A stretch of DNA of 64,000 nt from Candidatus Binatia bacterium (GTDB lineage Bacteria > Desulfobacterota > Binatia > HRBIN30), in contig DASVHW010000043.1 in the NCBI GenBank assembly GCA_036382395.1, forward strand, positions 7,678 to 71,677. The letters are read 5' to 3'. The position numbers were made by a program, and so were the translations under genes. How positions within the stretch are numbered: the first letter of the stretch is position 1; each line of letters opens with the position of its first letter. A model generated the notes under the pieces. It searched no databases, was not told where the DNA came from, and worked only from the letters and a program-made list of their open reading frames with translations. This document shows positions 4,958 through 62,699 of this stretch, piece after piece.

Positions 4958-4972
4958 GCTGACCCGGCACCC

Positions 4973-7609: not shown

Positions 7610-7637
7610 GCCGGAGGCGGACAGTGCGCCTCGAATC

Positions 7638-8141
7638 CTACTGCGACACCTCACTGTCGTAGGACAGCACGACGAGCACCTGACCTGCTTCGACCATATC
7701 GCCCGCCGAGACGCGTAACTCGCTGACCGTACCGGTGGCCTCGGCCACCAGGCGGTTCTCCATCTTCATCGCTTCCAGGATCAGCAAACCGTCGCCGGCC
7801 ACAATGTGCTGGCCCGGTTGCACCAGGGCTTCGAGCACTCGGCCCGGCATCGGGGCGGTGATTTCGGGAGACGCGACCGTCGCGACCCGGTGCGCCGACG
7901 CGCCACTCTCGGACACGAACTGATAGACCTCACCATCGACGGCGACCAACCGGTCCCGGCCGTTGCGCACCAAGTCGACGCGGTATTGCCGCCCGTCGAC
8001 GACGACAAAGAGCGTCGCATCATCCAGGTAGTGCGCTTCGACCACGTGCTCGGCACCATCCAGACCGACGCGATAGGCACCACCGTCGGACTGGACGTCG
8101 ACAGCGACATGGTGCTGCTTATGACGGAGCGAGATCCGCAT
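7638..8141 (-). CDS. Biotin carboxyl carrier protein (BCCP) / biotinyl-domain subunit of an acyl-CoA carboxylase.
   Basis: C-terminal biotinyl domain with the 'EAMKMEN' biotinylation motif. ATG at 8141 preceded by AAGAGG. It lies in the same reading frame as the upstream biotin carboxylase, separated only by a TAG plus 4 codons. Confidence 0.8.
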   Translation of the reverse strand: MRISLRHKQHHVAVDVQSDGGAYRVGLDGAEHVVEAHYLDDATLFVVVDGRQYRVDLVRNGRDRLVAVDGEVYQFVSESGASAHRVATVASPEITAPMPGRVLEALVQPGQHIVAGDGLLILEAMKMENRLVAEATGTVSELRVSAGDMVEAGQVLVVLSYDSEVSQ

Positions 8142-8153
8142 GGAGCCTCTTTG

Positions 8154-19648: not shown

Positions 19649-19653
19649 GGCAT

Positions 19654-20589
19654 CTACGGAAAGGTCACGGTCGCAGAGCTACCGCCCTCGAAGGAAGGCT
19701 CATTGCCGGCAGTGCCGGTAGTGCCTCGGAACGGCACCTCATCCACGACCAATCCCAGGAGCGGTCCACCCGAGCCACGGACGACCACATGCGCCGTGTC
19801 GGTACCCACGACTGCTCGGGTCAGGGTGCCGGCGCCGATGTCCGTCAACGGGCGCTGGTCGAAGCATTTCAGGGTGCTGGCTGTGGAGAACTGCGATTCG
19901 AACTCGTTGTAGATGACGAACTGCACCCCCAGCGAGGTCGGGGTTTGCGTCAGCAAATTCTCGGTGCAGGGCACGAGAACCATCTCGCTCGAAGAGGTTG
20001 GTTGGTCCGCCGTCAGGACATCGAAGTGCAACCTGCTGGGGCACTGCGCGTATGTCGTCCCATCGAGCTTGAACACCCCGGTGTAGTCACCAGCGCTGAG
20101 GCGTTGAAAGCCTACGGCGCCGTAGGAAGCGGACTGCCCGTTCGACGAGGTAAAGATGGTCGCGCGCCCCTGAATGGCGTTGTGGGAATCGAGATCTGGC
20201 AAGGTTGCCTGCACGGCGCACTTCAATTCGCCCGTCCCAAAGAACGGCGGAGCAGCGCTGCTCCCACTGTTGAGCCCGGAACTGGCCAGCCACGCCATCG
20301 GCTGGTACGGCGTCAAAAGGACCATAAAGCCGATCTCGTTGCAGGATGCCCCGTCGATGTAGAAGCATTCGACCAACTGGGGATCGCCGGACAGATTGAC
20401 CAATTCAATTCGAGTGTCTTGCGCCAGATGGTTGGGTTGATCTTCAGACACCTGGACGAGCGGGAAGACGAGCAGCGCCGAGGGCAGCTTCTGGGCTGGA
20501 GGACCCCCTGCCCAGGCGCTTGAGAGCGACAACAACACTGCCCCCAAAACAACCAGCGCCTGTTTAGCCCACCACAGCAAACGCATCAC
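19654..20589 (-). CDS. Secreted Cys-containing protein, paralog of 18398..19648 without the TP-rich linker.
   Basis: Signal peptide 'MMRLLWWAKQALVVLGAVLLSLSSAWA'. Collinear conserved motifs with the upstream paralog. 5 nt downstream of the other gene's start. Confidence 0.6.
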   Translation of the reverse strand: MMRLLWWAKQALVVLGAVLLSLSSAWAGGPPAQKLPSALLVFPLVQVSEDQPNHLAQDTRIELVNLSGDPQLVECFYIDGASCNEIGFMVLLTPYQPMAWLASSGLNSGSSAAPPFFGTGELKCAVQATLPDLDSHNAIQGRATIFTSSNGQSASYGAVGFQRLSAGDYTGVFKLDGTTYAQCPSRLHFDVLTADQPTSSSEMVLVPCTENLLTQTPTSLGVQFVIYNEFESQFSTASTLKCFDQRPLTDIGAGTLTRAVVGTDTAHVVVRGSGGPLLGLVVDEVPFRGTTGTAGNEPSFEGGSSATVTFP

Positions 20590-48990: not shown

Positions 48991-49698
48991 ATGAAAGCCG
49001 GACTCATCGCTGCCGGGCTCGGCGTGCGCCTCCGCGAGCACGGCATCACGCTTCCCAAACCCCTGGTCCCCGTGGCCGGTAGAGCCTTGATCGACTACGT
49101 GCTGGGCGCCGCGGTCATGGCGGGAGTGCGTCAGATCGCGGCCATCGTCAACGAGGAGTCCAGCGGGATCGAGCAGCACTGTCAGGCGCATTGGCCGCAG
49201 CTGACATTCGAGTTTGTCCGGCGCACGACGCCAAGCTCGATGGAAAGCTTGTTCGCACTGCGCCCGTTGTTGGAAGGCGGACGGTTCGTGCTGCTGACGG
49301 TGGACGCGATTTTCGCACCGGCGGTGCTGCAAACATTCCTCAGCGCAGCAGCTGCGCGCGACGACGCACAGGGGGTGCTCGCATTGAGCGATTTCGTCGA
49401 TGATGAAAAGCCGCTCTATACGCGCATCGCGTCAGACGGCCGTATCACGGCACTGGGTGCCGACGCCCAAGGCGCCACGTTGGTCACTGCAGGATTCTAC
49501 GTGTTCGACCCAGTGATCTTCCGCGAAATCCCTCTCGCCAGGCAGTCCGGCTTCACGGCGTTGCGCCAGTTCTTGGGACACCTGCTCCAGCGGGGCTACC
49601 GTCTGTACGGCGAGCGGATTTCCAAGACCGTCGACGTCGACCGGCCGGAAGATATCGGTGTCGCCGAGGCCTTCATCCGCAGTGGATTCACAGCATGA
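48991..49698 (+). CDS. Sugar/polyol-phosphate nucleotidyltransferase (LicC/IPCT-like cytidylyltransferase fold).
   Basis: N-terminal 'MKAGLIAAGLGVRL' (G-x-G-x-R) NTP-transferase signature. 235 aa. Confidence 0.75.
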   Translation: MKAGLIAAGLGVRLREHGITLPKPLVPVAGRALIDYVLGAAVMAGVRQIAAIVNEESSGIEQHCQAHWPQLTFEFVRRTTPSSMESLFALRPLLEGGRFVLLTVDAIFAPAVLQTFLSAAAARDDAQGVLALSDFVDDEKPLYTRIASDGRITALGADAQGATLVTAGFYVFDPVIFREIPLARQSGFTALRQFLGHLLQRGYRLYGERISKTVDVDRPEDIGVAEAFIRSGFTA

Positions 49699-50504
49699 GC
49701 AAATTGGTTGGCATGACCCGTGAGCGGGTGTTCTCACCTGGCAAAGTGGAGGATGACAGCGCCATCCTCGAAGCAGCCGCCGCCCACCTGCGCGCACGGG
49801 GCCACGCCGTAACGGTGTGCCGCGCCGACGAACCCGAGTGGCCGGACCCAACGGGTGTCAGCTTGGTGTTCACCATGGCCCAAGGGGCCGCCGCGCTGGC
49901 GCGCCTGCAACACTGGCAAGCGCAGGGCGTGCGCATCATCAACAACCCGGACGGTATCCTCAATTGCCAGCGCCACCGAACGATTGCAGCCTTCGCCAAC
50001 GCAAAGATTCCGTTTCCCCAGAGTGTTCTCTTGGAGACGAGCGACGGCGCGGCTCTGCCGCAATGGGTGGCGCAGGGGGCATGGGTGAAGCGGGGGGACG
50101 TCCACGCCACCGAAGCGGGAGACGTGATCCGGATCGACAGCCGCGCCGCCGCGCGCGACGTGCTGCAGCGGCTGCAGCAGAGGGGTATCCGTACCGCCCT
50201 GGTGCAGCGGCACGTGCTGGGAACGGTGCTGAAGTTTTATGGTGTCTGGCAACGGTTCTTTCATTGCGTGCCCCCGCTCAACGGCTCGCCTCTTCCAGCC
50301 GACGTGCTCGAGCAAATGGAGGCGCTGGGCCGACGCGCGGCGCAAGCGCTGAACGTCGAAATCTACGGTGGTGATTGTGTTTACGCCGCCAACGGCGCGC
50401 TGTCCTTGATTGACTTGAACGATTGGCCCAGCTACGCTTCGTGCCGCGCTGAGGCGGCCATTGAGATAGCAGCCTATTTGCATGCGCGAGAAGCCGCAAC
50501 TTGA
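49695..50504 (+). CDS. ATP-grasp domain protein (RimK/GshB-like ligase, or ITPK1-like kinase fold).
   Basis: 'GVRIINNPDGILNCQRHRTIAAFANAKIPFPQS' pre-ATP-grasp/ATP-grasp junction, 'WVKRGDVHATEAGDV' and 'LIDLNDWPS' motifs. Start overlaps the upstream stop. Confidence 0.6.
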   Translation: MSKLVGMTRERVFSPGKVEDDSAILEAAAAHLRARGHAVTVCRADEPEWPDPTGVSLVFTMAQGAAALARLQHWQAQGVRIINNPDGILNCQRHRTIAAFANAKIPFPQSVLLETSDGAALPQWVAQGAWVKRGDVHATEAGDVIRIDSRAAARDVLQRLQQRGIRTALVQRHVLGTVLKFYGVWQRFFHCVPPLNGSPLPADVLEQMEALGRRAAQALNVEIYGGDCVYAANGALSLIDLNDWPSYASCRAEAAIEIAAYLHAREAAT

Positions 50505-51862
50505 TGGGAAAAGCTGCATCGAAGAAAGCGCCGGCCCACGATCGACTCCCCGGGCCAAAATCACGCGCCCTCATCGCCACCGAGGGTGAGTACATTGCCC
50601 CGGGACTGCAACGCATTGCCCAGCTCTCCGAAATCGCCTTGGTGGAAGGGCGTGGGTGCACGCTGGTCGATGCCGACGGCAACGAATACCTTGATTTCTT
50701 TGCGGGCGTTGCGGTCGCCAGTCTCGGCCACTCCCACCCACGGTTCGTCTCCGCGCTGATCCATCAGCTCGAAAGGCTGGCGGTGGGGAGCTTCACCAAC
50801 GAGCCGCGGACCGCATTGCTGAAACTCTTGGCGGAGCTGGCGCCGGGGGCGTTGAAACGGACCCAACTCTACAGCGGTGGGGCGGAGGCGGTCGAAGCCG
50901 CTGTTCGGTTGGCAAAATCGTACACCAAGAAGCACGAGGTCGTCGGCTTCTGGGGCGGTTTCCACGGCAAGACCGGTGGGGTGATGGGGCTGATCGGCGA
51001 TGCGTGGAAGCAGAAATGGGGGCCGCTCGCTCCAGGCACATACCTCGTGCCGTATGCCGATTGCTATCGTTGCCCCTTCAAGTTGAGCTACCCGAATTGC
51101 GGCCTGTTCTGCGTCGAATTCATGCGCAAGTCCCTCAAGACCACTACCGCAGGGGCCATCGCCGCGATCATCGTCGAGCCGATGCAGGGGACGGCGGGAA
51201 ACGTCATTCCACCACCGGAGTTCCTGCCCGCGGTGGCGGAGGTCGCGCGCGAGAACGATGCCCTCCTCATCATCGATGAAATGATCACCGGTTTCGGCCG
51301 CACCGGAAGCATGTTCGGCTGTGACCATACCGACACCGAGCCGGACGTCATGACGATCGGCAAAGGATTCGGGTCGGGGTTCCCGGTCACCGGCCTGGTC
51401 TCCACCGACGAGATCACCGCTTCCTTCCCCTTCGCCAAGCCGAGTTCCTCCTCGTCGAGCTACGGCGGCAACCCGCTGGGCGCGGCGGCGGCGCTGGCCA
51501 CCGTCGAAACGATCTTGGACGAGGAACTGGTGGAGAACTCGCAACGCGTCGGCACGGTGCTGCTGCACGAGCTGCGTCGCTTGCAGGACAAATACGAGTT
51601 CATCGGCGATGTCCGCGGCTCCGGTCTCTTGATTGGGCTCGATCTGGTGAAAGATCGGACCACGAAGCAGCCGCTGTCCTCGGCTGTCACGGAAGAAATC
51701 TTCCGAGGCGCGCTTCGGCGCGGCCTGCTGCTGATGGGGTACTTCGCGCGCGTACGCATCAATCCACCTCTCATCCTGACAGAAATGGAAGCAAGGGACG
51801 GCGTCGCCATCCTGGATGAAGTCTTTGCCGAGGTGGCGCGAACCGGCAGCTACCGGCAATGA
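50501..51862 (+). CDS. Class-III pyridoxal-phosphate aminotransferase.
   Basis: 'LIIDEMITGFGRTGSMFGCDHTDTEPDVMTIGKGFGSGFPV', with the PLP lysine in 'TIGKG'. 453 aa. Confidence 0.85.
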   Translation: MMGKAASKKAPAHDRLPGPKSRALIATEGEYIAPGLQRIAQLSEIALVEGRGCTLVDADGNEYLDFFAGVAVASLGHSHPRFVSALIHQLERLAVGSFTNEPRTALLKLLAELAPGALKRTQLYSGGAEAVEAAVRLAKSYTKKHEVVGFWGGFHGKTGGVMGLIGDAWKQKWGPLAPGTYLVPYADCYRCPFKLSYPNCGLFCVEFMRKSLKTTTAGAIAAIIVEPMQGTAGNVIPPPEFLPAVAEVARENDALLIIDEMITGFGRTGSMFGCDHTDTEPDVMTIGKGFGSGFPVTGLVSTDEITASFPFAKPSSSSSSYGGNPLGAAAALATVETILDEELVENSQRVGTVLLHELRRLQDKYEFIGDVRGSGLLIGLDLVKDRTTKQPLSSAVTEEIFRGALRRGLLLMGYFARVRINPPLILTEMEARDGVAILDEVFAEVARTGSYRQ

Positions 51863-52908
51863 CGAGAGTCCGTGATGGCGCGATCATTGGCTTCGGTAAC
51901 ATGGCAGCCAATGGTCACCTACCGGTCTGGCGCGAGCGCTCCGACTTTCGCATTGTCGCCGTAGCCGACTCGGACCCGGGCCGGCGCGCGCTGGCGGAGC
52001 AGGCCATCGCCGGCGTCCGGACGTACACGGATTACTACGAGTTGCTGCGCAGTGAGCGGTTGGATTTCGTCGACATCGCCACCCCGCCCTCGTTGCACGC
52101 GCCGGCGATCATCGCTGCGGCGCGGGCCGGTGTAGACGTATTGTGTGAAAAACCCGTCACGCCGTCGCTGCACGAATACCGCGCCGTGCGGACCGCTGTG
52201 AGCCAAGGCGGGGTGGTGTTGCACACGGTCCACAACTGGAAATACTCGGAAGCATTTCGTACGGCGCGGGGGCTGTTGGCGGCAGGCGGCCTCGGCTCGC
52301 TGCGCGCGATCTCGTTCGACACCGCGCGCAACGGCTGCGCCAGCAGCACCAGCGGCAACTGGCGCGTGCAGGCGTCCGTCGCCGGCGGCGGGATTCTCAT
52401 CGACCACGGCTGGCACACCTTCTACCTGCTGTTGGCGCTGGCAAACGAACAGCCGTGCCGGATCCGCGCCGCACTGGAGCGGCGCCGCTACGTCGATGCC
52501 GAAGTCGAAGACACCGCCGTGTGCACCATCGATTTTCCGTCGCTCGTGGCTGAGATTCGCTTGACCTGGGCCGCGAGTGAGCGCCGAACACAGTGGCGGC
52601 TCGTCGGTAACGACGGCGATCTGCTGATCGACGACGACCAGGTGGTCATGCAGGGAAAGACGGCGCGACACTCGCAGCAGTTGGCGACGGCATTGTCCGC
52701 CGGCTCCCACCACCCGGAATGGTTTGCCGGTGTGGTGGACTCGTTTCGCCAGGAGCTGGATGAACCGGAGGTGCGGGGCACGAATCAAACAGAAGCTGAG
52801 TGGTGCCTGCTCATGCTCGACCTGGCGTATGCCTCCGATGCCCGTGATTCGCGGCCAATCGACGTTCCTCGGCTCAGCGAGTGGTTTGAGGGGGGGGTGG
52901 GGAATTGA
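51859..52908 (+). CDS. Gfo/Idh/MocA-family NAD(P)-dependent oxidoreductase (inositol/sugar dehydrogenase-like).
   Basis: N-terminal Rossmann 'IIGFGNMAANGHLPVW', 'CEKP' motif, and the Gfo/Idh/MocA C-terminal domain. Confidence 0.85.
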   Translation: MTRVRDGAIIGFGNMAANGHLPVWRERSDFRIVAVADSDPGRRALAEQAIAGVRTYTDYYELLRSERLDFVDIATPPSLHAPAIIAAARAGVDVLCEKPVTPSLHEYRAVRTAVSQGGVVLHTVHNWKYSEAFRTARGLLAAGGLGSLRAISFDTARNGCASSTSGNWRVQASVAGGGILIDHGWHTFYLLLALANEQPCRIRAALERRRYVDAEVEDTAVCTIDFPSLVAEIRLTWAASERRTQWRLVGNDGDLLIDDDQVVMQGKTARHSQQLATALSAGSHHPEWFAGVVDSFRQELDEPEVRGTNQTEAEWCLLMLDLAYASDARDSRPIDVPRLSEWFEGGVGN

Positions 52909-54104
52909 AAACTGCTGTGATTCTTCCGCCGACAGCCGCAAGCTTTCAGACCGTCGCCGGCCTACCGCTGATTCAGCGCACCGTGCTGAGCGCGGCTCGA
53001 TGCGACTTCGACCGTATCGTCGTTCTCGGAAACGGACGTGCCGAGCCTCTGCGCACGCTGCTTGCCGGAGACAAGCGCACGCGTGCCGTCGAGGTGACCA
53101 AGGGCCTGTCGCAAGTCGAAGGCTCATCCGTGACTGTGATCCCGAGCGATCGCCTACTGACCGCTGCGACCCTCGCACGCGTCAATGCGGCCAGTTTGGA
53201 TGGCCGGCCGCTCCTGTTCGGTGCGGGCGGTCGCCATGACATCGCCGTGTGCCGGCCCGGGATGCTCTCTGGTATCGACCTCAACGCGCTCGCCGCACAG
53301 GGAGCCGACGCCGTGTGGGCGGCACTCCATGCGCGCGGGGCGCAGACCCTTCCGCTCGACGGGGAGGTCTGTCTGCCGGTCGGCGACGAACACTCCGCGG
53401 CCGCGGCGGAACTGGCGTTGTGCAAACGTCTGCGGGCTGACAGCGCCGCCAGTGATGGGCCGCTGGCCCACTGGATCGACCGCCGCATCTCGCTACGGAT
53501 CAGCCGCTGGCTCGCCAACCACACGCGCGTGCGGCCGAACCACATCACCATCGTCGGGACCTCGATCGGGCTGCTCGCCGCCGCCACGCTCAGTGTCGGC
53601 ACCTACTGGGCCGGAGTCGCCGGCACGCTGCTGTTTCTGTGCGCCACCATTCTCGACGGTTGCGATGGCGAGGTGGCCCGACTGACGTTCTTCGATTCCC
53701 CGTTCGGCGAGAAGTTCGATGTCATCACCGACAACATCGTGCATGTCGCGATTTTCATCGGCTTGGCGCTCGGCCTGTACCACCAAAACGCCAGCGGCCA
53801 TTACCCTCTTCTGATCTCCATCTTGCTCGGCGGATTCGCATGCGACACAGCCCTGAGCTACTTTTTCCTCGTTCGGCGGCCGGGCTTCGCCCGCAGCGGC
53901 GGCGCGCCGGTGACTTTGAAAGGCAAGGTCCGGCGGAAGCTGCTGGGCCTCTTCGAGGCCATGATGAACCGCGACTTCGCTTACCTGCTCCTCGTGCTGG
54001 CAGTGGTCGATCGCTTATACTGGTTTTTCTGGGGCGCCGCGTTCGGCACCTATCTCTTCGCGATTCTGTTAGTGTGGATTTACCGATGGCGTGATGCGGC
54101 ATGA
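52905..54104 (+). CDS. CDP-alcohol phosphatidyltransferase-family membrane enzyme with an N-terminal degenerate nucleotidyltransferase-like domain (IPCT/DIPPS-like architecture).
   Basis: C-terminal 'DGCDGEVAR ... GEKFDVITDNIVH' matches the CDP-OH-P transferase motif D-G-x2-A-R...G-x3-D-x3-D. N-terminal 'MKTAVILPP...GLPLIQR' is NTP-transferase-like but lacks the GxGxR loop. TTG start overlaps the upstream stop. Confidence 0.7.
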   Translation: MKTAVILPPTAASFQTVAGLPLIQRTVLSAARCDFDRIVVLGNGRAEPLRTLLAGDKRTRAVEVTKGLSQVEGSSVTVIPSDRLLTAATLARVNAASLDGRPLLFGAGGRHDIAVCRPGMLSGIDLNALAAQGADAVWAALHARGAQTLPLDGEVCLPVGDEHSAAAAELALCKRLRADSAASDGPLAHWIDRRISLRISRWLANHTRVRPNHITIVGTSIGLLAAATLSVGTYWAGVAGTLLFLCATILDGCDGEVARLTFFDSPFGEKFDVITDNIVHVAIFIGLALGLYHQNASGHYPLLISILLGGFACDTALSYFFLVRRPGFARSGGAPVTLKGKVRRKLLGLFEAMMNRDFAYLLLVLAVVDRLYWFFWGAAFGTYLFAILLVWIYRWRDAA

Positions 54105-54206
54105 GCACGGGCGCGGGCCGACTGACACCGTCACTCTCGTGCTCCGGCCTGCCCGGCATACGCCGATGATCCAATCCTTGGCTCTGGAGACATAGGCACA
54201 AGACGC

Positions 54207-55214
54207 ATGTTTACTCAGCGTGTATTCCGTATCGCCGAACGCCTCTTTCTCGTCGGCGGATTGATTCTGCTCGGGTTCATCCTGCGCGAGCTTGGGGTGC
54301 GGGCCGTGCTCGCCAACCTCCAGCTCGTCGGTTGGGGAATTGTCGCGCTCGTGCTTCAGGAGATGCTGGCGTACGTGGCAAACACGCTGGGCTGGCGGGC
54401 GGCTTTCCCGACTCCCCGGCCCCGGATTCCGTTCACACAGCTGCTCACCGCACGCATCGCGGGCGACGCGGTCAACTACCTCACCCCAACCGCAACCCTC
54501 GGCGGTGAATTCGTGCGGACCCGTTATTTGCGCGGCCAAGCCGAAGGCACGTCATTGGTGGCATCGGTCGCTGTCGCCAAACTGACCCAGACCATCGGCC
54601 AGATTGCGTTCGTCATCATCGGCCTGGCGTTCGTGCTCGACGATACGCCGCTTCCGTCTGCCGTCCGGCACGGCCTGTTCGTCGGATTGGCAGCGTTTTC
54701 AGCGCTGACGCTGGCACTGGTCATGGCGCAGCGCCGTGGGATGTTCGCCCCGATGCTGCGGATGGCGCAACGCCTGGGGTTGCCGGATCGGGCGCCGGAG
54801 TTCGGGCGACGTCTGCAGCGTCTGGATGCAGAGATCGCCCGTTTTCATGGTGAGGGCAACGGCGCCTTTTTCCTCTCATCGGCGAGCTTTTTCGCCGGAT
54901 GGGCCATGGGCGTCGTGGAAATTTACCTTATCCTTTGGCTGCTCGGGCTGCCCGTCAGTGTGCATCGCGCCCTCACCATCGAAGTGTTCTCGGTCGCCAT
55001 CGACGGAATGTTCTTCTTCGTGCCGGCGAAGGTGGGGACACAGGAGGGCGGAAAGGTGCTCATCTTCACCCTGCTGGGCCTCGACCCGGGCAAGGGCCTG
55101 GCGTTAGGACTCTTGCGGCGCATACGCGAACTGACCTGGGCTCTGGTGGGAATGCTGATTCTGTCACGCCAGCAAATGGCGCCGCGCCCCGTCTTCCAAC
55201 CCCTCGTCCGGTAG
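54207..55214 (+). CDS. UPF0104 / lysyl-PG-synthase-TM-domain (flippase-like) membrane protein, HpnL-like.
   Basis: Multi-TM protein of ~335 aa with 'FFFVPAKVGTQEGG' near the C-terminus, typical of the TIGR00374/HpnL family. Immediately precedes an HpnK-like gene. Confidence 0.55.
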   Translation: MFTQRVFRIAERLFLVGGLILLGFILRELGVRAVLANLQLVGWGIVALVLQEMLAYVANTLGWRAAFPTPRPRIPFTQLLTARIAGDAVNYLTPTATLGGEFVRTRYLRGQAEGTSLVASVAVAKLTQTIGQIAFVIIGLAFVLDDTPLPSAVRHGLFVGLAAFSALTLALVMAQRRGMFAPMLRMAQRLGLPDRAPEFGRRLQRLDAEIARFHGEGNGAFFLSSASFFAGWAMGVVEIYLILWLLGLPVSVHRALTIEVFSVAIDGMFFFVPAKVGTQEGGKVLIFTLLGLDPGKGLALGLLRRIRELTWALVGMLILSRQQMAPRPVFQPLVR

Positions 55215-55320
55215 CGATGCGGGCTGCGCCCAGCGTCCGTTCGGCGGGACCGCTCCCCGCCCGCACTCCAGAGGCTTCCGGCGGACGTGTTGGGTCGCTT
55301 CGGGTGGCTACCAACGGCAC

Positions 55321-56247
55321 TTGACGGAGATGCGAAAAGTCGCAGGCGCAATGCACGAGCGGCCCATGTCCCGAACCCCCGAGCGAAGGCGGCTGATCGT
55401 ATCCGGTGACGACTTTGGTATGTCGCCGGGCGTCAACGCCGGAATCATCGCGGGGCATCGCAACGGCATTTTGACCGATGCCAGCCTGATGGTGAACGGG
55501 ACCGCCTTTGCAGAGGCGGTCGATCTCGCACGCGCCACCCCGACACTGGCGGTCGGCCTGCACCTCGTTCTGGTGCAGGGCCGCGCCACGTCGGCGGCGC
55601 ACCAGGTGCCCGGCCTAGTGGATGCCGCCGGCATGTTCCGGAACAACTCGGTGGCGGCGGGATTGCGCTACTTCTTCGCCCCCGGAATGCGCGCCCAAAT
55701 TGAACGCGAAGTGAGTGCTCAACTGGAAAAATACCTCGCCACCGGGCTGCCGCTGGCGCACGTGGACGGTCACCTCAATATCCACATGCACCCGACCGTC
55801 CTGATGATCCTGTTGCGGCTCGCCTCACGCTACGGCGTCCGTGCCATGCGCCTGCCGCGCGAACCGTGGCGGATTTCGCTGCGGCTGGACCGGCGTGAAC
55901 GCCGGCGTAAGCTGGTCGAAGCGCTGATCTTCCGCAACCTCACGCGTTACGCCCACCCGCGGCTAGCGGCGCATGGTATCCGCCATCCTGATCAGCTGTT
56001 CGGACTGCACCAGAGCGGCCACGTCAACGAACCATACCTGCTCAGTGTATTGAGCGCGTTGCCCGCGGGCCTCACCGAAGTCTACTGCCACCCTGCCTTC
56101 ACCGACGACGAGGCACGACGGTGGCGTCCAGCAGATTACGAAAGCGAGGTCGAACTGGCGGCGTTGACCAGCCCCCGCGTTCGCCGGGCGCTACGCACGA
56201 GCGCGATCGAGCCCATGAGCTACGAGGACCTTGCCTCCTCGGGCTGA
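55321..56247 (+). CDS. YdjC/ChbG-family carbohydrate deacetylase, HpnK-like.
   Basis: 'LIVSGDDFGMSPGVNAGIIAGHRNGILTDASLMVNG' and 'AVGLHLVL', 'HVDGHLNIHMHP' YdjC motifs. Start ambiguous (55321 or 55366). Confidence 0.75.
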   Translation: MTEMRKVAGAMHERPMSRTPERRRLIVSGDDFGMSPGVNAGIIAGHRNGILTDASLMVNGTAFAEAVDLARATPTLAVGLHLVLVQGRATSAAHQVPGLVDAAGMFRNNSVAAGLRYFFAPGMRAQIEREVSAQLEKYLATGLPLAHVDGHLNIHMHPTVLMILLRLASRYGVRAMRLPREPWRISLRLDRRERRRKLVEALIFRNLTRYAHPRLAAHGIRHPDQLFGLHQSGHVNEPYLLSVLSALPAGLTEVYCHPAFTDDEARRWRPADYESEVELAALTSPRVRRALRTSAIEPMSYEDLASSG

Positions 56248-57092
56248 GTACTTCCAGGGGCCGCGACCGAGCCTTCGCCGAAACCCGCCAGCAGAGCGGC
56301 GCCTGCGATCGCCAGTGTGAAGGCCAGTGGCCGTAGCACCGCCGCCGGTCCCTCGCTCGGCAGGGCTTCGCCAAACACCATGATGCCGCCCACGATGGGC
56401 ACCAGATTCGACAGGCCGGAATAGAGCGGCATCACCACCACCCCGCGGCCGCTCTGTAATGCCGCCTGCATCAGGGCAAATCCGACGATATTGGCGCCCG
56501 TAGTGAGAACGATGTAGATCACCGCATCCTGGGAGGCGAACGACCCCTCGTCGGCAAGCCCCTTGGCATAGACGGACGCCAAGCCCAAGATCAATCCGCT
56601 GGCGACGCTCATGCCGATGGCACGGCCCGGCTGCTGATCGGCAAACCACGCCAACGCGGAGAGGGCGAGCACCGCCACCGAAAACAGAAACAGGTCATGC
56701 GCCGCGCGGTGTGCCGCGGGATCGCTCGACAACGATACGCTCAACGTGATCAGCGAGGCGGTGATCAGCAAGACACCGAGCCACTCGACCGGCCGCGGCT
56801 CTTCCCCCAGTCCCACCACGGAAAGAATCACGAAGAGGACGATGCCACCGTTCAGCGCCGTGTGCACGATGGAGAGCGGGGCGGCGCGTAGCGCCATGAA
56901 GTAGAACCCGTAACCGACGATCTGCAGCGCCAGACCGATCATCCACAACGGATCGCGAACGAAGGCCCACCAGGCGCTGAGGCGCCAGCCACCACCGAGG
57001 GACGGCAGATGCTCCGCCTGACGCTTCATGAGATACAAGCCGAGCGTCAGCAAGGTACTGGCAACAATGGCTAACAGGGAAGCGAACTCCAT
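56220..57092 (-). CDS. EamA/DMT-superfamily membrane transporter.
   Basis: 10-TM hydrophobic protein (290 aa) with two EamA-like halves. 3' end overlaps the hpnK-like gene on the other strand. Confidence 0.55.
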   Translation of the reverse strand: MEFASLLAIVASTLLTLGLYLMKRQAEHLPSLGGGWRLSAWWAFVRDPLWMIGLALQIVGYGFYFMALRAAPLSIVHTALNGGIVLFVILSVVGLGEEPRPVEWLGVLLITASLITLSVSLSSDPAAHRAAHDLFLFSVAVLALSALAWFADQQPGRAIGMSVASGLILGLASVYAKGLADEGSFASQDAVIYIVLTTGANIVGFALMQAALQSGRGVVVMPLYSGLSNLVPIVGGIMVFGEALPSEGPAAVLRPLAFTLAIAGAALLAGFGEGSVAAPGSTQPEEARSS

Positions 57093-57184
57093 ACCCAGGC
57101 GGGTCGCAGAACCTCAGTCCGACGTCAAGCGCGCGCAACAGATCGGCAACGGCATCCGCCCCGTGAGCGCCAACGAGCCGGCAC

Positions 57185-58648
57185 TCACGACGCAGGAGAC
57201 GTCGTCGAGTTGGCTGCGGCCTTACCGTTGCCAGCTGCGCGGCGCTTGCGCATGGTGGACAGGAATTCGCGGGCTTCCCGCAACATGCGTTTGCGCTCAT
57301 CGCGGCTCTTCAGCATTTTCTTCGCCGCCTTCATGAAATATCTCGGCCGGAAATAGTACTTGCGGTAGAAGCGCTCGACGGCCGCGAAAATCTCCTCGGC
57401 CGAAGCCTCCGGATAACTGACCGTGCACCGCTGGTAGCCGGCTTCGTCGTTGTAGACGTCCTGCACGAGGAAGTTGTGCTCTTTCACATATTCATAGAAG
57501 TGCGTGCCCGGATAGGGCGATGCCAGCGACACCTGGATGGTTTCCGGGTCCATTTCGCGGGCGAAACGGATCGACTCCTCGATGGTCGCCAGCGTTTCGC
57601 CGGGGAGGCCGACGATGAACGTGCCGTGAATGAGAATGCCGAGATCGTGGCAATCCTTCGTGAAGCGGCGTGCCCGTTCGAGGCTGACGCCCTTCTTGAT
57701 GTTCTGCAAGATCTGCTCGTTGCCGGACTCGTACCCGACCACGAACAAGCGCAGCCCACCGTCCTTGAGAACCCGCAACGTCTCCCGGTCCACGTTGGCG
57801 CGCGCATTGGTCGACCAGCACAACCCGAGCGGTTTGAACAACTGCGCCAGCTGCCTGGCACGAGGTGGATCCGCGGTGAACGTATCATCGTCGAAGAAGA
57901 TCTCTTTCATCTCCGGGAAGAGGCGCTTCATGTCCTTGACTTCCTCGAAGACGTTCTCCGAACTGCGGGTGCGGTAGGAATGGCCGGTCGTGACCTGCGG
58001 CCAGAGACAGAACGTACAGCGCGCGGGGCAGCCGCGGCCGGTGTACATGGAGACGTAGGGATACTGGCAATAGGGGCTGTTGTACTTCAGGTACTGAAGG
58101 TCGCGATGGTAAATCTGGGTCACGAAAGGCATCGCGTCGAGTTCCGCGGTGGTCAGCGGCAAGCGCTCTGGATTGTGAATCACGTTGCCGTTTTGCCGAT
58201 AGCTGATGCCTGGAATGCGTGACCAGTCATGGCCCAGGGCAACGTCCCGAACGGCGTAGTCGAATTCCTTGCGCGCCACCAGGTCGATGGCCGACGACGC
58301 TTTCAGAGAGGCTTCCGCCTGCACCGTGACATGGCCGCCGACAAACGCGATGGTACACTTCGGATTGGCATCCTTGATCATTTCCGCCGTGCGCGCGTCG
58401 AGCCGGAACGAAGGCGTGCTGGTGTGCACGACGACGAAGTCGTAGGCGCTGGCGATGGCCACCGTTTGCTCCTGGTTGAGGTGCTCGGGCGGCGCATCGA
58501 GGACGCGGCTGTCCGCCACCAGCCCGGCCGGGTAGCAGAGCCAGGTGGGATACCAGAAAGACCACACTTCGCGGGTCGCCTGGTAGCGTGATCCTGCCCC
58601 GCCGTCGAAGTCCTCGTAGGCAGGCGGGTTCAGAAAGAGCGTCTTCAT
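57185..58648 (-). CDS. B12-binding radical SAM protein, hopanoid-associated HpnJ-like.
   Basis: N-terminus 'MKTLFLNPPAYEDFDGGAGSRYQATREVWSFWYPTWL' is characteristic of HpnJ. Radical-SAM motif 'CPARCTFC'. Start at the ATG at 58648; the track ORF extends to 58753. Confidence 0.75.
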   Translation of the reverse strand: MKTLFLNPPAYEDFDGGAGSRYQATREVWSFWYPTWLCYPAGLVADSRVLDAPPEHLNQEQTVAIASAYDFVVVHTSTPSFRLDARTAEMIKDANPKCTIAFVGGHVTVQAEASLKASSAIDLVARKEFDYAVRDVALGHDWSRIPGISYRQNGNVIHNPERLPLTTAELDAMPFVTQIYHRDLQYLKYNSPYCQYPYVSMYTGRGCPARCTFCLWPQVTTGHSYRTRSSENVFEEVKDMKRLFPEMKEIFFDDDTFTADPPRARQLAQLFKPLGLCWSTNARANVDRETLRVLKDGGLRLFVVGYESGNEQILQNIKKGVSLERARRFTKDCHDLGILIHGTFIVGLPGETLATIEESIRFAREMDPETIQVSLASPYPGTHFYEYVKEHNFLVQDVYNDEAGYQRCTVSYPEASAEEIFAAVERFYRKYYFRPRYFMKAAKKMLKSRDERKRMLREAREFLSTMRKRRAAGNGKAAANSTTSPAS

Positions 58649-58872
58649 ACAACTCCCATTGTGCCTCGTCCGATTGCTATTTCGAGCCAGCAGAGTAACC
58701 GAGCCCACCCGCCCGATCAAGAGCGCATCGATCCGAGCGCATCGATCCGCCACTCTCGGCCGTCACGGCAATGAGGATCGATGGCGCCCTCTCGGCGCAC
58801 ACGCACCAGAGTCGCGGAAACGCGTATCTCAGCCGGCTTTTCCTCTCAAGCCGGCTGTGATCTTATACCCCA

Positions 58873-60096
58873 ATGCCGGTCGCCATCCGCCGCTACGCCG
58901 CGGTAATCGCGGTAATTGTCGCCTGCGTTGCGTGTCTCGTCATCCTTGGCGAACGGGCGGACGCGGATATGACGCTGATTCCATTGCCGGAAGTCATCGT
59001 TGATCCGAACGAAGGCACCACCGTCGGTTTTCTTCCCGTCATGCTGATCGCCAACGACGCCAAGAGCATCCGCAGTATCATCGCTCCCGACGTCCGTTAC
59101 AACGACACCTTCGGTGTGTACCCGACGGTTCGCTTCTTCGACTATCCCGATCCCAAACAGAAGTACTTCATCATGGGCGGGAAAGGGAGCAAGCGCGGCG
59201 AGGACCTCGAAGGGAATTATGCCGGCCAGGATCTTCTCGCCGGCTGGCTGGACCTGCGCGCCGACGCCGCGCACGAGGATGACCCGTTCGAACGGTTTTA
59301 TGGCTTCGGCAACCACACCCCGAACTCGAACGAGGCCAATTGGACCTCGAGGACCAACGGCGGAACATTTTTCACCGGCTTGAACTTTTTCGGAGATTTC
59401 CAGGCCTTCTGGCAGCCGCGGCTGCGCCAAGTGCGTGTCGGCCGAGGCGGCATCGGCACCCTGCCGCAAGTTCGCGATCCGACATCCGGTTTTTCCAGCG
59501 TCAACGGTGTCACCGGCGCCTCGATCTTCGGCCAGCAGTTCGGATTGATCTACGACGATCGTGATGTTCGCGACATTCCCACGCAAGGCGTGTTTGCCCA
59601 GAGCTCCATCGAGATCGTCGACAAAGCCCTCGGCAGCTCGAACTCGTTCATCAAATATGCGTTCGAGGGCAAGTCGTTCATTCCGTTGCGGCCGGACAAG
59701 AAGTTCATCGTTGCGCTGCATGCGGTGTTGAATTATCTGCAGCACGGTGAGGATGCCCCGTTCTACGAGAAGAACAGCGTCGGCGGCATTGGCAGCCTGC
59801 GCGCCTTCGGCAGCCACCGGTTCACCGACAACCATCGTTTTTTCCTCCGGGGTGAGCTGCGCACCAACGTCTACGAACGGGAAGTCTTCGGCGTACGGGC
59901 GCATCTCGAGATCGCACCGTTTCTCGACGTCGGCAAGGTGTTCAATTCCTCCAGGGAGTTTCCCCTCGAAGACCTACACGTCGTCGGCGGGCTCGGCTTC
60001 CGTGCCGTCGTCGTCCCCCAGGTGGTTGCGTACGTCGACTTTGGCAGCTCGGGCGGAGCCCCCGCCGCGTTTACCGGGATCGACTATCCGTTCTAG
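58873..60096 (+). CDS. Outer-membrane beta-barrel protein (Omp85/surface-antigen-like barrel, C-terminal Phe).
   Basis: Signal/anchor 'MPVAIRRYAAVIAVIVACVACLVILG'. Alternating beta-strand pattern. Ends '...GIDYPF', the canonical OMP C-terminal aromatic signature. Confidence 0.5.
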   Translation: MPVAIRRYAAVIAVIVACVACLVILGERADADMTLIPLPEVIVDPNEGTTVGFLPVMLIANDAKSIRSIIAPDVRYNDTFGVYPTVRFFDYPDPKQKYFIMGGKGSKRGEDLEGNYAGQDLLAGWLDLRADAAHEDDPFERFYGFGNHTPNSNEANWTSRTNGGTFFTGLNFFGDFQAFWQPRLRQVRVGRGGIGTLPQVRDPTSGFSSVNGVTGASIFGQQFGLIYDDRDVRDIPTQGVFAQSSIEIVDKALGSSNSFIKYAFEGKSFIPLRPDKKFIVALHAVLNYLQHGEDAPFYEKNSVGGIGSLRAFGSHRFTDNHRFFLRGELRTNVYEREVFGVRAHLEIAPFLDVGKVFNSSREFPLEDLHVVGGLGFRAVVVPQVVAYVDFGSSGGAPAAFTGIDYPF

Positions 60097-60344
60097 AGGC
60101 CCGGCCGAAAATGGGTTCCGAAGCGAAACTCGTCAGCCGCAGTGCGCGCACGTCGGCGCTTTCGACGCTCGCACGCCTCGCAACGGCTGACCTTCGCATC
60201 GCTGATGCTGGTTGACATTGTCGGGCCGTAGGGCTTTGACACCGCTGCGGATCGCGCGCGGCACGCAATCCGTTGGCAGAAGAGACACTCCGCTTCGGTG
60301 GCAGGTCGAGAAGGCACGCTGATGACGCTCGGGAGGATACGCAC

Positions 60345-61256
60345 ATGATGCTGAAGGACAAGGTTGCGGTGGTCACGGGTGCGGGCGGCGGCATCGGCCG
60401 TGGCATCGCACTGTCGCTCGCCCGGGAGGGCGCCAAGGTGGTCGTCAACGACCTTGGCGGCAGCGCCATCGGTGAGGGTCGGGATGCGGCGCCGGCGGAC
60501 CAGGTGGTGGCCGAGATCGTCGCGGCGGGCGGGACCGCGGTGAGCAACTACGACTCCGTCGCCAGCCTCGCCGGCGGCGAGAAGATCATCGGCACCGCCT
60601 TGGAGAAGTTTGGCCGCATCGACGTGGTCGTCAACAACGCGGGTATTCTGCGCGACCGCATGCTGTTCAACATGAGCGAAGACGATTGGGATGCGGTCAT
60701 CGCCGTGCATCTGAAGGGTGCGTTCGCCTGCACGCGGGCGGCGGCCCCTCACATGCGCCAGCAGAAGAGCGGGCGGATCATCAACATCACGTCGACGTCG
60801 GGGTTGATCGGCAACTACGGCCAGGCCAACTACGCGGCGGCGAAGTTGGGCGTCGTCGGCCTGACCAAAGGTGCCGCGCTCGATCTCGCTCGCTACGGTG
60901 TCACCGCCAACTGCATCGCCCCGTTCGCCTGGACACGGATGATCGGCTCCATTCCCACCGAGACCGAGGCGCAAAAGGCCCGCGTCGAGAAGATCAAGAA
61001 AATGGACCCGGCGATGATCGCGCCGCTGGTGGTCTTCCTGGCAAGCGATGCGGCCCAGGAAATCACCGGCCAAATCTTTTGCGTGCGCGGCAAGGAGATC
61101 ATCCTGTTCTCCCAGCCACGGCCCATCCGCCAGATCGTGGATGTCGCAGGCTGGACGGCCGAGAAGGTCGCCGCCGTCGTGCCCGACGCGTTCAAGAGTT
61201 CTTTCTACAAGCTCGATGTCAGCGCGGATATTTTTCCGTACGATCCGTTCGTGTGA
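60345..61256 (+). CDS. SDR-family NAD(P)-dependent oxidoreductase with a ~50-aa C-terminal extension.
   Basis: 'VAVVTGAGGGIGRGIAL' TGxxxGxG, 'NNAG', catalytic 'YAAAKLG'. ATG at 60345 with a GGGAGGA RBS. Confidence 0.8.
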   Translation: MMLKDKVAVVTGAGGGIGRGIALSLAREGAKVVVNDLGGSAIGEGRDAAPADQVVAEIVAAGGTAVSNYDSVASLAGGEKIIGTALEKFGRIDVVVNNAGILRDRMLFNMSEDDWDAVIAVHLKGAFACTRAAAPHMRQQKSGRIINITSTSGLIGNYGQANYAAAKLGVVGLTKGAALDLARYGVTANCIAPFAWTRMIGSIPTETEAQKARVEKIKKMDPAMIAPLVVFLASDAAQEITGQIFCVRGKEIILFSQPRPIRQIVDVAGWTAEKVAAVVPDAFKSSFYKLDVSADIFPYDPFV

Positions 61257-61281
61257 GCCAAATTACCCGGGGCTGCCGATC

Positions 61282-61387
61282 GGCTCGGCTTCCGTGCCGT
61301 CGTCGTCCCCCAGGTGTTGCGTACGTCGACGTTGGCAGCTCGGGCGGAGCGCCCGCCGCGTTCACCGGGATCGACTATCCGTTCTAG
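61282..61387 (+). pseudogene. Duplicated 3'-terminal fragment (~106 bp) of the outer-membrane protein gene. Degenerate copy with a 1-bp deletion.
   Basis: 61282..61387 aligns to 59990..60096 with 3 substitutions and 1 indel, including the terminal '...GIDYPF*' codons and the TAG stop. Confidence 0.7.
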
Positions 61388-61389
61388 CC

Positions 61390-61589
61390 GCAATGCCAGT
61401 AACTTAAGCGGCGTCGTGCCAAGATCGCATCCTTCGAGACGGCGCCTGAAGGACGGCGCCTCCTCAGGATGAGCGGATAATCATTGTTGCATCAAGCCAA
61501 TACCGCTCACCCTGAGGCCGCATCTCCTCAGCGGCCGTCTCCTCGAAGGGTGGCGGCCACCTCGGAGGCCCTTAAGTTACTGGCATTGC
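61390..61589. mobile_element. MITE-like 200-bp element with perfect 19-bp terminal inverted repeats (gcaatgccagtaacttaag ... cttaagttactggcattgc) and a nested 15-bp hairpin.
   Basis: Left TIR 61390..61408, right TIR 61571..61589. Inner stem 61452..61466 / 61493..61507 (14/15 match). No ORF inside. Lies between the duplicated gene fragment and the epimerase gene stop. Confidence 0.45.
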
Positions 61590-61601
61590 TCCTAGCCCCC
61601 G

Positions 61602-62699
61602 CTACTCGGTCGGCGGGCGATCTCTCTGGACCTTCGGATCGAAGTATGCGAGCCCGAGCCCCGGCGGCTGCTTGAAGCGGACCTGGCTCAGTCGCTCGAG
61701 GCCGTCCTTGTACAACGCAATCAGTCGGTCCTCCGAATCGTACTCGAACGGGTCCTGCAGGATCCACTCCGTTTCGCCCCCGGGCGGTGGTGGGTTGGCG
61801 ACGTACCAGCGGGCGGTGAGCGCAAGCGCTGCCGGCGGGGAGACCGGATCTCGATATCCAAGCTCGCGCCGGAGCTTGCCGATGTCGAGCACTCGGTGGG
61901 TCGGCAACGGGTGCATGATCATCGGCCACGCGGGGCGCGCCACCTCCCAAGGCATCGACACGATCTCCATCTCGTGGTCGAGGGCGGCGCAGATGCACTC
62001 GACGACCTGCCTGAGGCTCAGCACCTGTTCGTCCCCGGCGTTGTACACCTGCCCGGCCGAAACCGCGGGGTTGTCGAGGGCCAGCAGGACGGCGTGCGCC
62101 ACGTTTCCCGAGTAGCCGAAGGTGCACAGCGTCAGGCCGCCCTCCGGAAGGATTATGTGTCGCCGGCCGTCGATGATGCGGCGAACGATGCACCATTCGC
62201 GCGGCACGAGCTGCCGGGGGCCGTAGACGTACGGGTAGCGGATGTGCGTCGCCTCGGGATGCAGCGCCAGCACCGTCTCCTCCGTCATGCGGATGCGGTA
62301 GCCCTTGCGGTGCTCCTCCTCGCTGGCCACCTTGGGTCCATCCTCGTAGGTCGGCACCGGCATCCCCACCGGCGTGAACCGTCCCGGCTCGAAGTAGCCG
62401 CGATAGCACGGGAAGCCGCCCGCGGAGATCAGGCGGCCCGTTTTGCCGACGAGGAGTTCGGCGATCGCGCGCAGCCGCCCGTAGGTGACGACACTCACAT
62501 CGAACGTGCGACCGGCCAGCGCCTCCCGAACGGCGCCGGGCTCCCAAGGATCCACGTGGATGTGCTCGACCTCGGACGGGATCTCATCGATCTCGTGCAG
62601 GCTCCTGTGCAGCATGGACACGCGGTAGCCGCGCTCGATGAGCCCGCGAATGATGAACGGCCCCGTGGGGCCGGTCCCGCCGACGATGAGAGCCTTCAT
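61602..62699 (-). CDS. NAD-dependent epimerase/dehydratase (extended SDR).
   Basis: 'MKALIVGGTGPTGPFIIRGLIERGYRV' Rossmann motif. Start at the ATG at 62699; the track ORF extends to 62729. Confidence 0.8.
   Translation of the reverse strand: MKALIVGGTGPTGPFIIRGLIERGYRVSMLHRSLHEIDEIPSEVEHIHVDPWEPGAVREALAGRTFDVSVVTYGRLRAIAELLVGKTGRLISAGGFPCYRGYFEPGRFTPVGMPVPTYEDGPKVASEEEHRKGYRIRMTEETVLALHPEATHIRYPYVYGPRQLVPREWCIVRRIIDGRRHIILPEGGLTLCTFGYSGNVAHAVLLALDNPAVSAGQVYNAGDEQVLSLRQVVECICAALDHEMEIVSMPWEVARPAWPMIMHPLPTHRVLDIGKLRRELGYRDPVSPPAALALTARWYVANPPPPGGETEWILQDPFEYDSEDRLIALYKDGLERLSQVRFKQPPGLGLAYFDPKVQRDRPPTE

Follow-up and report, generated by a model that had tools for sequence, protein, structure and literature searches.

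The second copy of an Omp85-family gene 3' end beside an SDR gene in Candidatus Binatia: a probable relic of microhomology-guided joining

The locus is part of a 64-kb stretch of DNA from an uncultured Candidatus Binatia bacterium, hereafter the window, and includes an intact gene for an Omp85-family outer-membrane protein (OMP), an SDR-family oxidoreductase gene, a palindromic MITE-like element and a convergent epimerase-family gene that shares its block with PolX (Table 1). Located upstream of the OMP gene were the hopanoid genes HpnJ and HpnK, both identified as NCBIfam equivalogs, and the synteny between HpnJ and the OMP gene was kept in the related loci L010, L012, L016-L018, L020, L033, L038 and L042. 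The OMP protein had no exact match on record, and its homologues were searched for instead. Among the NCBIfam models, Omp85_fam matched the OMP at 1e-41, which is under that model's cut-off, and the SDR protein gave a PRK07791-like match, also under cut-off.

Table 1. Features of the OMP-SDR locus, with positions counted from the first nucleotide of the window
Feature	Position	Strand	Description
Omp85-family outer-membrane protein gene, intact	58873..60096	+	407 aa, C-terminus ...GIDYPF then stop; Pfam Omp85 5.7e-19
Repeat copy 1	59990..60096	+	107 nt, functional OMP 3' end (final 35 codons and TAG)
40-nt stretch directly 3' of OMP stop	60097..60136		Occurs in L038/L039; first 12 nt in L008 too
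47-nt methyltransferase-gene interior fragment	60138..60184	-	Gene intact in relative L042; right end is deletion joint J2
Native SDR upstream region	60174..60344	+	Common to L025/L027, L038 and L042
SDR-family oxidoreductase gene	60345..61256	+	303 aa; Pfam adh_short 7e-47; own GGGAGGA RBS
Native SDR 3' flank	61257..61289	+	Common to L025/L027 and L038/L039
Repeat copy 2	61282..61387	+	106 nt, dead OMP 3' fragment
Joint J3, 8-bp microhomology GGCTCGGC	61282..61289	+	In SDR 3' flank and in OMP at 59990-59997
Palindromic MITE-like element	61388..61591		204 nt; 19-nt perfect terminal inverted repeats; at synteny breakpoint J4
NAD-dependent epimerase-family gene, convergent	61602..62699	-	PolX in same block

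The 3' end of the OMP gene, including its TAG stop, was present twice in direct orientation, and the three substitutions and 1-bp deletion that a preliminary description had counted between the copies were re-measured and confirmed. No mismatch occurred in the first 35 nt and the identity also ran through the TAG. This pair was the sole near-identical long direct repeat within the window, the remaining repeat families being paralogous repeats of 65-79% identity. Between the copies were a 249-nt spacer, the SDR gene and 25 nt, and the SDR gene was, as first described, the only gene there and equipped with its own RBS.

Three contigs from other samples (L001 and L003 from JGI, L002 from ENA) showed this arrangement too, together with the four inter-copy differences seen in the window. 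They were 98.8-99.7% identical to the window and spanned both copies, with two of them continuing into the epimerase gene. An artefact of assembly was excluded because these contigs had been assembled independently with both copies. The ends of short Logan contigs (L005-L007) do lie within the repeats, as expected of a true repeat, and a collapsed or chimeric repeat can scarcely be credited when the three contigs, which differ in sample and assembler, agree on all four differences. Relatives sharing the arrangement shared the divergence between the copies as well, and the case put forward beforehand as counter-evidence, an identical arrangement with undiverged copies, was not encountered among them.

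The two copies differed in their state of preservation. Copy 1 retained the C-terminus of the OMP, in agreement with the preliminary description. Compared with the OMP 3' ends in L008 and in strain B (L033), it showed two differences, GCG>GCC and TTC>TTT, both synonymous; only the former was private to copy 1, the TTT variant being present in L038 and L042 as well. Copy 2 contained the 1-bp deletion as a frameshift, carried a Phe>Val change and was without a start codon or RBS, and in a population variant (L004) additional deletions between repeats of 5-7 nt had removed most of it. The appropriate annotation for copy 2 is a pseudogene fragment rather than an ORF. At site 60072 a C was found in copy 2, L008 and L033 while a T was found in copy 1, L038 and L042, and the sequence 3' of copy 2 was CCGC as in strain B compared with AGGCCC... 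3' of copy 1. Copy 2 may derive from another allele because of this C and the CCGC flank.

Comparison with relatives placed the joints and breakpoints of the locus and so bore out its description as a rearrangement footprint. The loci L038/L039 were colinear with window positions 55338-61288 (95.9%) and had the same OMP gene, an identical 249-nt spacer and the SDR gene, which was followed by HicB and IS200/IS605 with no copy 2. An older state was represented by L042 (97.1%), where the OMP gene was followed by 3.2 kb with three genes and then by the SDR gene, while in L033/34 the OMP gene was followed by geneX. These arrangements do not support the earlier proposal of an SDR insertion between the repeats, and none of them was the predicted empty site in which the OMP gene would directly precede the MITE-like element or the epimerase gene. 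A foreign origin of the SDR gene, for which a comparison of composition had been suggested, was likewise not upheld. The GC content was not diagnostic (SDR 0.64-0.70, OMP 0.57-0.64, epimerase 0.67-0.69), and dS, which replaced codon usage as the measure, was 0.095 for SDR (to L025) and 0.090 for OMP (to L034). The SDR gene is therefore not foreign to the clade, since its dS to the sister strain matches that of the OMP gene. Transplantation of the SDR gene from another locus, as a reading of L025 had suggested, was ruled out by L038 and L042, in which the link of OMP and SDR is ancestral. The SDR homologues with 90% identity in L028-L032 were found in contexts that were all different, and these are uninformative because their dS is about 0.8.

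The spacer between the OMP and SDR genes was made up in part of deletion relics. A source for the 40 nt directly after the OMP stop was found in none of all the fetched loci. The fragment at 60138-60184 corresponded to L042 13497-13543 with 95.7-97.9% identity (E about 1e-15), in the interior of the methyltransferase gene, and joint J2 at its right end marked the loss of 782 nt between two direct repeats of 11 nt, CGCCCCGCAAC. This 47-nt match overturned a reading in which 60135-60165 was the native sequence that follows the stop in strain B (p = 0.004), and significant similarity between strain B and the L042 methyltransferase gene was absent. A divergent ORF on the minus strand starts within the native SDR upstream region, with its ATG at 60219-60221, and contributes its first 13 codons to it; a promoter and terminator scan gave no signal above shuffled expectation.

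Joint J3, with the sequence GCCGATCGGCTCGGCTTCCGTGCC, connected the SDR 3' flank to the second OMP fragment. The parental match to GGCTCGGC in the SDR flank was 8 nt in L025 and 7 nt in L038, and the probability of a microhomology of at least 8 at a random junction was 2.4e-4. The joint was head-to-tail, as position 61289 was joined to the equivalent of 59998, located 1,292 nt upstream, with strand and orientation unchanged. This geometry fits the tandem-duplication remnant offered as the second option in the preliminary description. RecA-independent tandem-duplication join points at short repeats are a feature of gene duplication-amplification in Salmonella and E. coli, known from the Roth/Andersson literature. 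J3 can be placed among such join points by its head-to-tail geometry between similarly oriented sites about 1.3 kb apart, by its 8-bp GC-rich microhomology and by the unduplicated parent in L038/L039, and it differs from them in that 106 nt of the second unit are left and the rest has been replaced at a MITE-associated breakpoint. Unlike the unstable amplifications of the laboratory, this remnant has become fixed in a natural population and has already diverged. Recent examples of duplication-amplification include PMC12625342 and PMC10414762.

The right end of copy 2 was located at the stop-codon CTAG, where the MITE-like element sits. CTAG was present on each side of the element, at 61384-61387 (the copy 2 stop) and at 61592-61595, and because CTAG is itself palindromic a target-site duplication is indistinguishable from a part of the inverted repeat. 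The predicted hairpin had a folding energy of -117 kcal/mol (z = -9), and an Rfam search of 59800-61800 gave no meaningful family, with the palindrome producing only a sub-threshold match to a plant microRNA hairpin. In its terminal inverted repeats, flanking CTAG, empty site and non-coding nature the element resembles MITEs with IS5-like CTAG targets. It departs from them in being seen as a single copy, in the mismatch between its two ends over their terminal 2 nt and in a left flank that differs from the empty-site expectation. A search for further copies found the one in the window and none outside the same strain among 42 loci. The orthologous site in L035 was empty, reading ...GCCTAGCCAGCCCGCGCTA with a single CTAG, and only its right flank was orthologous. 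Homology to L035 ended at the right end of the element, which defines J4, and in L035 the epimerase gene adjoined a CoA-transferase gene with the element and OMP/SDR absent.

Taken against this background, copy 2 is probably a non-functional relic of illegitimate, microhomology-guided joining, and not of an SDR insertion. In the ancestor the OMP and SDR genes would already have been neighbours, about 3 kb of intervening genes having been lost earlier through short-repeat deletions. The site 33 nt past the SDR gene (...GGCTCGGC) would then have been joined to the same 8-mer in the OMP gene. The unit formed by the OMP 3' end, the spacer, the SDR gene and 25 nt would thereby have undergone a direct duplication of the tandem type, with J3 as the presumed join point. 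A formerly complete second unit would subsequently have been cut at the OMP-stop CTAG, leaving its first 106 nt with the MITE-like element there and the epimerase-PolX block beyond. This truncation may have occurred by insertion of the MITE followed by recombination between two MITE copies, although the latter step is a conjecture since a single copy of the element is known. A full tandem intermediate would read copy 2, then AGGCCCGGCC... / TAGAGGCCCGGCC, then a second SDR gene. Against this explanation, a complete second unit with two SDR copies was found in no genome; the window and L001-L003 contained one SDR gene and just 106 nt of unit 2. Also against it are the possible origin of copy 2 from another allele and the fact that breakpoints placed purely at random would not be expected to coincide, as they do at 61288/9 in the window, L038 and L025.

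Homology-facilitated illegitimate recombination (HFIR), known from natural transformation in Acinetobacter and Streptococcus pneumoniae, provides an unlikely alternative and is the nearest surviving form of the earlier idea of an insertion that regenerates the OMP C-terminus. Donor DNA resembling L038 (the OMP 3' part, spacer, SDR gene and 33 nt) would have entered a related recipient by a homologous left crossover in the OMP gene and an illegitimate right joint at GGCTCGGC in the recipient's OMP gene, so that copy 2 would be the recipient's original 3' end, pushed downstream. The OMP gene did show a mosaic signal: at informative sites near 59750 the window, L042-like up to there, became L038-like, with identity to L038 of 97.5-98.9% from about there through the SDR gene and 95.4-96.9% upstream. 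The dS values to L008 (0.40 in the OMP 5' part, 0.15 in the OMP 3' part and 0.10 in SDR) show that such tracts move between lineages, and the outgroup state C at 60072 and the strain-B-like CCGC after copy 2 also speak for HFIR. A possible one-sided homologous anchor in OMP, together with an illegitimate joint at a GC-rich microhomology of 3-10 bp, would be common ground with HFIR. This process usually deletes recipient DNA, whereas recipient sequence would here have been duplicated. The allelic support, and with it the distinction between donor and recipient, amounts to one SNP and 4 nt; copy 2 matches neither the 3' end of the OMP gene in the L042-like background nor what lies downstream of it there; and a recipient that already had a downstream SDR gene would be expected to undergo plain homologous replacement. 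HFIR would gain support from an OMP 3' end that carries the frameshift or the C allele and continues into CCGCGAGTG or CCAGGATC. The term is used in PMC6382021.

It is improbable that copy 2 arose as a templated patch in one complex rearrangement of the MMBIR or end-joining type, without a second SDR gene ever having existed. A broken end past the SDR gene would have primed at GGCTCGGC in the OMP gene, copied about 106-110 nt and then been joined to the MITE/epimerase locus. Such a patch would account for the position of copy 2 exactly between the synteny breakpoints J3 and J4, for the microhomology at J3 and for the failure to find a full tandem intermediate, but no microhomology could be assigned at J4 and the end of the copy coincides with CTAG, the apparent target site of the element, which transposition fits better.

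The right-hand boundary of the SDR region was shared among strains. The window, L038 and L025 all diverged at one shared position, 61288/9, after ...GGCTCGG(C), and 33 nt past the SDR stop they continued into the OMP fragment, into HicB and IS200/IS605, and into a glyoxalase-like gene, respectively. As three unrelated continuations occurred in strains less than 5% diverged, a recurrent site-specific breakpoint at ...GGCTCGG^ was considered, and this is highly doubtful. If it were real, through a dedicated mechanism such as hairpin or single-stranded-DNA targeting, copy 2 would have been captured at an unrecognised hot spot of gene shuffling. A conserved hairpin after the SDR stop was tried as the cause of the shared breakpoint and rejected, as the folds differ among strains.

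A mobile SDR cassette or integrative element targeting the OMP 3' end, with the repeats as attL/attR-like sites, is very improbable. A lone gene with its own RBS between repeats and the differing SDR contexts of L008, L025, L028, L029 and L032 would agree with it, and direct repeats of a gene 3' end around extra DNA with the gene left intact recall the att duplication of islands and prophages that integrate at 3' ends. Unlike in those elements, an integrase is absent and the supposed cargo is resident, vertically inherited and kept in repeat-less relatives, which retain OMP, spacer and SDR. The search for an integrative element gave no integrase or recombinase, with SDR the sole gene inside and the epimerase and PolX genes as neighbours, and the search for an integron cassette gave no shared attC-like imperfect palindrome, homology between contexts stopping 1-33 nt past the stop. 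Recombinase, attC and inverted repeats were all absent from the unit; furthermore, the spacer is built of relics that deletions left of resident genes and the dS agrees with vertical descent. The arrangements in L038/L039 and L042 contradict such an element.

The second copy is an ordinary scar in a rearrangement-prone spot, produced by a known type of event and not by a new kind of mobile element, and no new OMP or SDR biology is implied. The locus serves as a worked example of how population-level metagenome contigs can reconstruct such a spot, located here beside a hopanoid-associated cluster in uncultured Candidatus Binatia. The steps reconstructed are deletions between repeats of 11 nt and of 5-7 nt, the joining of a duplication at a repeat of 8 nt, a MITE located at a synteny breakpoint and tracts of recombination between strains. 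The 106-nt repeats would be expected to expose the SDR gene to loss through repeat-repeat recombination and, depending on the position of the crossover, such a loss could also carry the frameshift into the OMP gene.

The final 107 nt of the Omp85-family outer-membrane protein (OMP) gene (copy 1) recur as 106 nt (copy 2) beyond the neighboring oxidoreductase (SDR) gene. Three substitutions and a single 1-bp deletion set the copies apart; the first 35 nt and the stretch through the TAG are identical. The copies are separated by a 249-nt spacer, the SDR gene (303 codons, with a GGGAGGA ribosome-binding site of its own) and a further 25 nt. Independently assembled contigs from other samples also encode exactly this SDR protein, and three contigs with 98.8-99.7% identity to the window, L001 (JGI), L002 (ENA) and L003 (JGI), each span both copies. 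The four differences recur in all three, with one additional change in copy 2 of L002, while short Logan contigs end inside the repeats. Because these independent contigs cover both copies with the same four differences, the repeat is real and an assembly artefact was ruled out, confirming the 106-bp repeat flanking the SDR gene reported in the preliminary description. No further near-identical long direct repeat was found in a scan of the whole 64-kb window. Diverged (65-79%) internal direct repeats at 4175-7180 and 19035-20374, comprising 48-nt units at 123-nt spacing in two blocks separated by 2.6 kb, plus one 93-nt pair, resemble paralogous protein-repeat domains more than recent duplications.

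Features of the OMP-SDR locus and its joints (window positions unless a contig is named)
Feature	Position	Description	Short repeat at joint
Hopanoid-associated block	55321-60096	HpnK (YdjC-like), EamA/NIPA-like membrane protein, HpnJ (B12 radical SAM), POTRA-less Omp85-family protein	
OMP gene	58873-60096		
Copy 1	59990-60096	OMP 3' end	
Segment directly past copy 1 stop	60097-60136	40 nt	
Methyltransferase gene piece	60138-60184; L042 13497-13543	47 nt, interior	
J2 deletion	L042 13497-13543 and 14315	right end of 47-nt piece	11 nt
SDR gene	60345-61256		
J3 duplication joint	61282-61289	SDR flank/copy 2	8 nt
Sequence beyond J3 breakpoint	61288/61289; L038 8208; L025 2472	window: OMP fragment; L038: HicB and IS200/IS605; L025: glyoxalase-like gene; mutually unrelated	
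Copy 2	61282-61387	repeat of OMP 3' end	
Palindrome	61388-61591	204 nt, near-perfect; 19-nt perfect terminal inverted repeats; hairpin -117 kcal/mol (z = -9)	
CTAG flanks of palindrome	61384-61387 and 61592-61595	first is copy 2 stop codon	
L004 deletions	L004 1054-1290, about window 61300-61531	two deletions	5-7 nt
L042 genes between OMP and SDR		86 aa; 372 aa; 342-aa methyltransferase (minus strand)	

The nearest matching genomes were Candidatus Binatia MAGs. Upstream of the OMP gene are the hopanoid-associated HpnK and HpnJ, which both match NCBIfam equivalog models above cut-off. HpnJ-OMP synteny was kept in Binatia relatives whose OMP identity was as low as 51%, and the gene downstream of OMP was lineage-dependent (glycosyltransferase, RecQ helicase, GFO/IDH oxidoreductase or choice-of-anchor-Q gene). 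The kept synteny of the hopanoid block suggests that the OMP is linked to hopanoid lipid handling.

Contigs L038 and L039 (JGI samples 3300046703 and 3300046710) were colinear with window 55338-61288 at 95.9% identity and carry HpnK, EamA, HpnJ, OMP, an identical 249-nt spacer, SDR and an identical 33-nt 3' flank. Past ...GATCGGCTCGG come a HicB-like antitoxin and an IS200/IS605 transposase, with copy 2 absent; OMP and SDR therefore stood side by side without the repeat. Contig L042, 97.1% identical to window 48995-60096, has OMP, 3.2 kb with three genes, and the SDR region from window coordinate 60174 on. Strain B (L033 and L034), 94.7% identical to the window with the same upstream synteny, has CCGCGAGTG... 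directly after OMP and then a choice-of-anchor-Q gene. Contigs L025-L027, drawn from the same sample series, contain the SDR region (60174-61289) at 96%, with a glyoxalase-like gene and SIR2 after it. The dS of SDR between the window and L025 (0.095) matches that of OMP between the window and L034 (0.090). SDR is a vertically inherited resident and no recent foreign arrival. The earlier proposal that SDR had been inserted between the repeats was thus contradicted by L038 and L039, and by L042, where SDR already lies downstream of OMP. The IS200/IS605 end region of L038 (9171-9341) had two further copies in L008, a more distant Binatia MAG (7632-7802 and 8012-8151, about 90% identity), and these recurrences suggest that IS ends, or small elements derived from them, form a family in these genomes.

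The spacer retains a piece of the methyltransferase gene that is intact in L042 (95.7-97.9% identity), and joint J2 matches a 782-nt deletion between two copies of an 11-nt direct repeat, CGCCCCGCAAC, present in L042. Since a 47-nt fragment cannot give rise to the whole gene it came from, the state in L042 is ancestral and the spacer of the window and L038 is a deletion relic. The segment directly past the copy 1 stop was shared with L038 and L039 but occurred in neither L042 nor strain B; L008 has the first 12 nt of it (AGGCCCGGCCGA) as well, and no source for it was found in the loci compared.

At joint J3, the parental SDR flank in L025 reads ...GGTCGGCTCGGC followed by GGCACG and the OMP gene reads ...GGCGGGCTCGGC followed by TTCCGT, while the window reads ...GATCGGCTCGGC followed by TTCCGT. 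As the window joins both parental sequences there, the crossover lies inside an 8-bp microhomology (7 bp with an L038-like parent). Microhomology of at least 8 bp had a frequency of 2.4e-4 among 200,000 random junctions from this region. J3 ties the downstream point to a site that lies 1,292 nt upstream and has the same orientation, the arrangement of a direct tandem duplication. The window, L038 and L025 part from one another at one nucleotide, 33 nt past the SDR stop, and a local hot spot at this position is possible; the J3 microhomology explains where the breakpoint lies for the window alone. That breakpoints recur there at a site-specific hot spot is highly improbable, and no conserved fold was found in the SDR 3' flank when the window and its relatives were compared.

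The other side of copy 2 is joint J4, the palindrome and epimerase-PolX breakpoint. Contig L035 (PolX-epimerase, 97.3%, sharing one sample with L038) was homologous to the window only as far as 61594, at the right end of the palindrome; past this it carries a CoA-transferase gene with its stop within a single CTAG, and the element is absent. The palindrome has the structure of a MITE, with inverted repeats, CTAG flanks and an empty site, and was seen in one copy; its variant in L001 and L002 was 21 nt longer. Copy 2 lies between J3 and J4 and is therefore bounded by two rearrangement joints. The rearrangement footprint proposed earlier was borne out.

The best-supported explanation is that an illegitimate, microhomology-guided head-to-tail joint made copy 2 when OMP and SDR were already neighbors. 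The starting genome would have had the two genes 249 nt apart, and the joint would have produced a tandem-duplication-type structure. Of its second unit 106 nt remain, up to the CTAG of the stop codon; the MITE-like element and an epimerase-PolX block, translocated or inverted, start there. The head-to-tail geometry of J3 fits the tandem-duplication remnant also put forward previously, or a closely related microhomology-mediated event. Short repeats at joints form a shared mutational signature across the locus (Table). The structure behaves like the classical join points of RecA-independent duplications at short repeats, and possibly like homology-facilitated illegitimate recombination (HFIR).

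A full tandem duplication, later truncated in association with the MITE, may have given rise to this structure, although the full tandem intermediate was not found among the contigs compared. HFIR import from an L038-like donor, leaving copy 2 as the recipient's own displaced 3' end, is a thin and rather unlikely variant, consistent with the window being a mosaic (L042-like to about 59750 and L038-like beyond) and with copy 2 having the outgroup base at 60072 and then CCGC as in strain B. The OMP gene of L008 (region 2866-5356) is also a mosaic, with a dS to the window of 0.40 in the 5' 670 nt and 0.15 in the 3' 555 nt, and its SDR dS was 0.10; this contrast shows that tracts do move between lineages. 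L008 also has an IS1595 transposase just upstream, a 59-codon Lys/Arg-rich ORF between OMP and SDR, and a MazF/RHH pair downstream. A templated patch copied within one complex rearrangement is very doubtful. An integrative element (no recombinase or empty site), an integron cassette (no attC) and a composite transposon (no transposase) were rejected.

The fate of the copies was followed using the OMP 3' ends of L008, L033, L038 and L042 as outgroups. Copy 1 showed synonymous changes only relative to L008 and L033 (GCG>GCC, TTC>TTT). Copy 2 carries a frameshift, caused by the 1-bp deletion, as well as a Phe>Val change, and is without a start codon or ribosome-binding site. In the population variant L004, two further deletions at short repeats (CGTCGT, CTCCT) have removed the bulk of copy 2 together with the palindrome's left arm and a portion of its interior, although the assembly of that one contig could in principle account for this. 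The repeat belongs to a known kind of ordinary genomic scar, and on these sequence features copy 2 appears to be dispensable and decaying.
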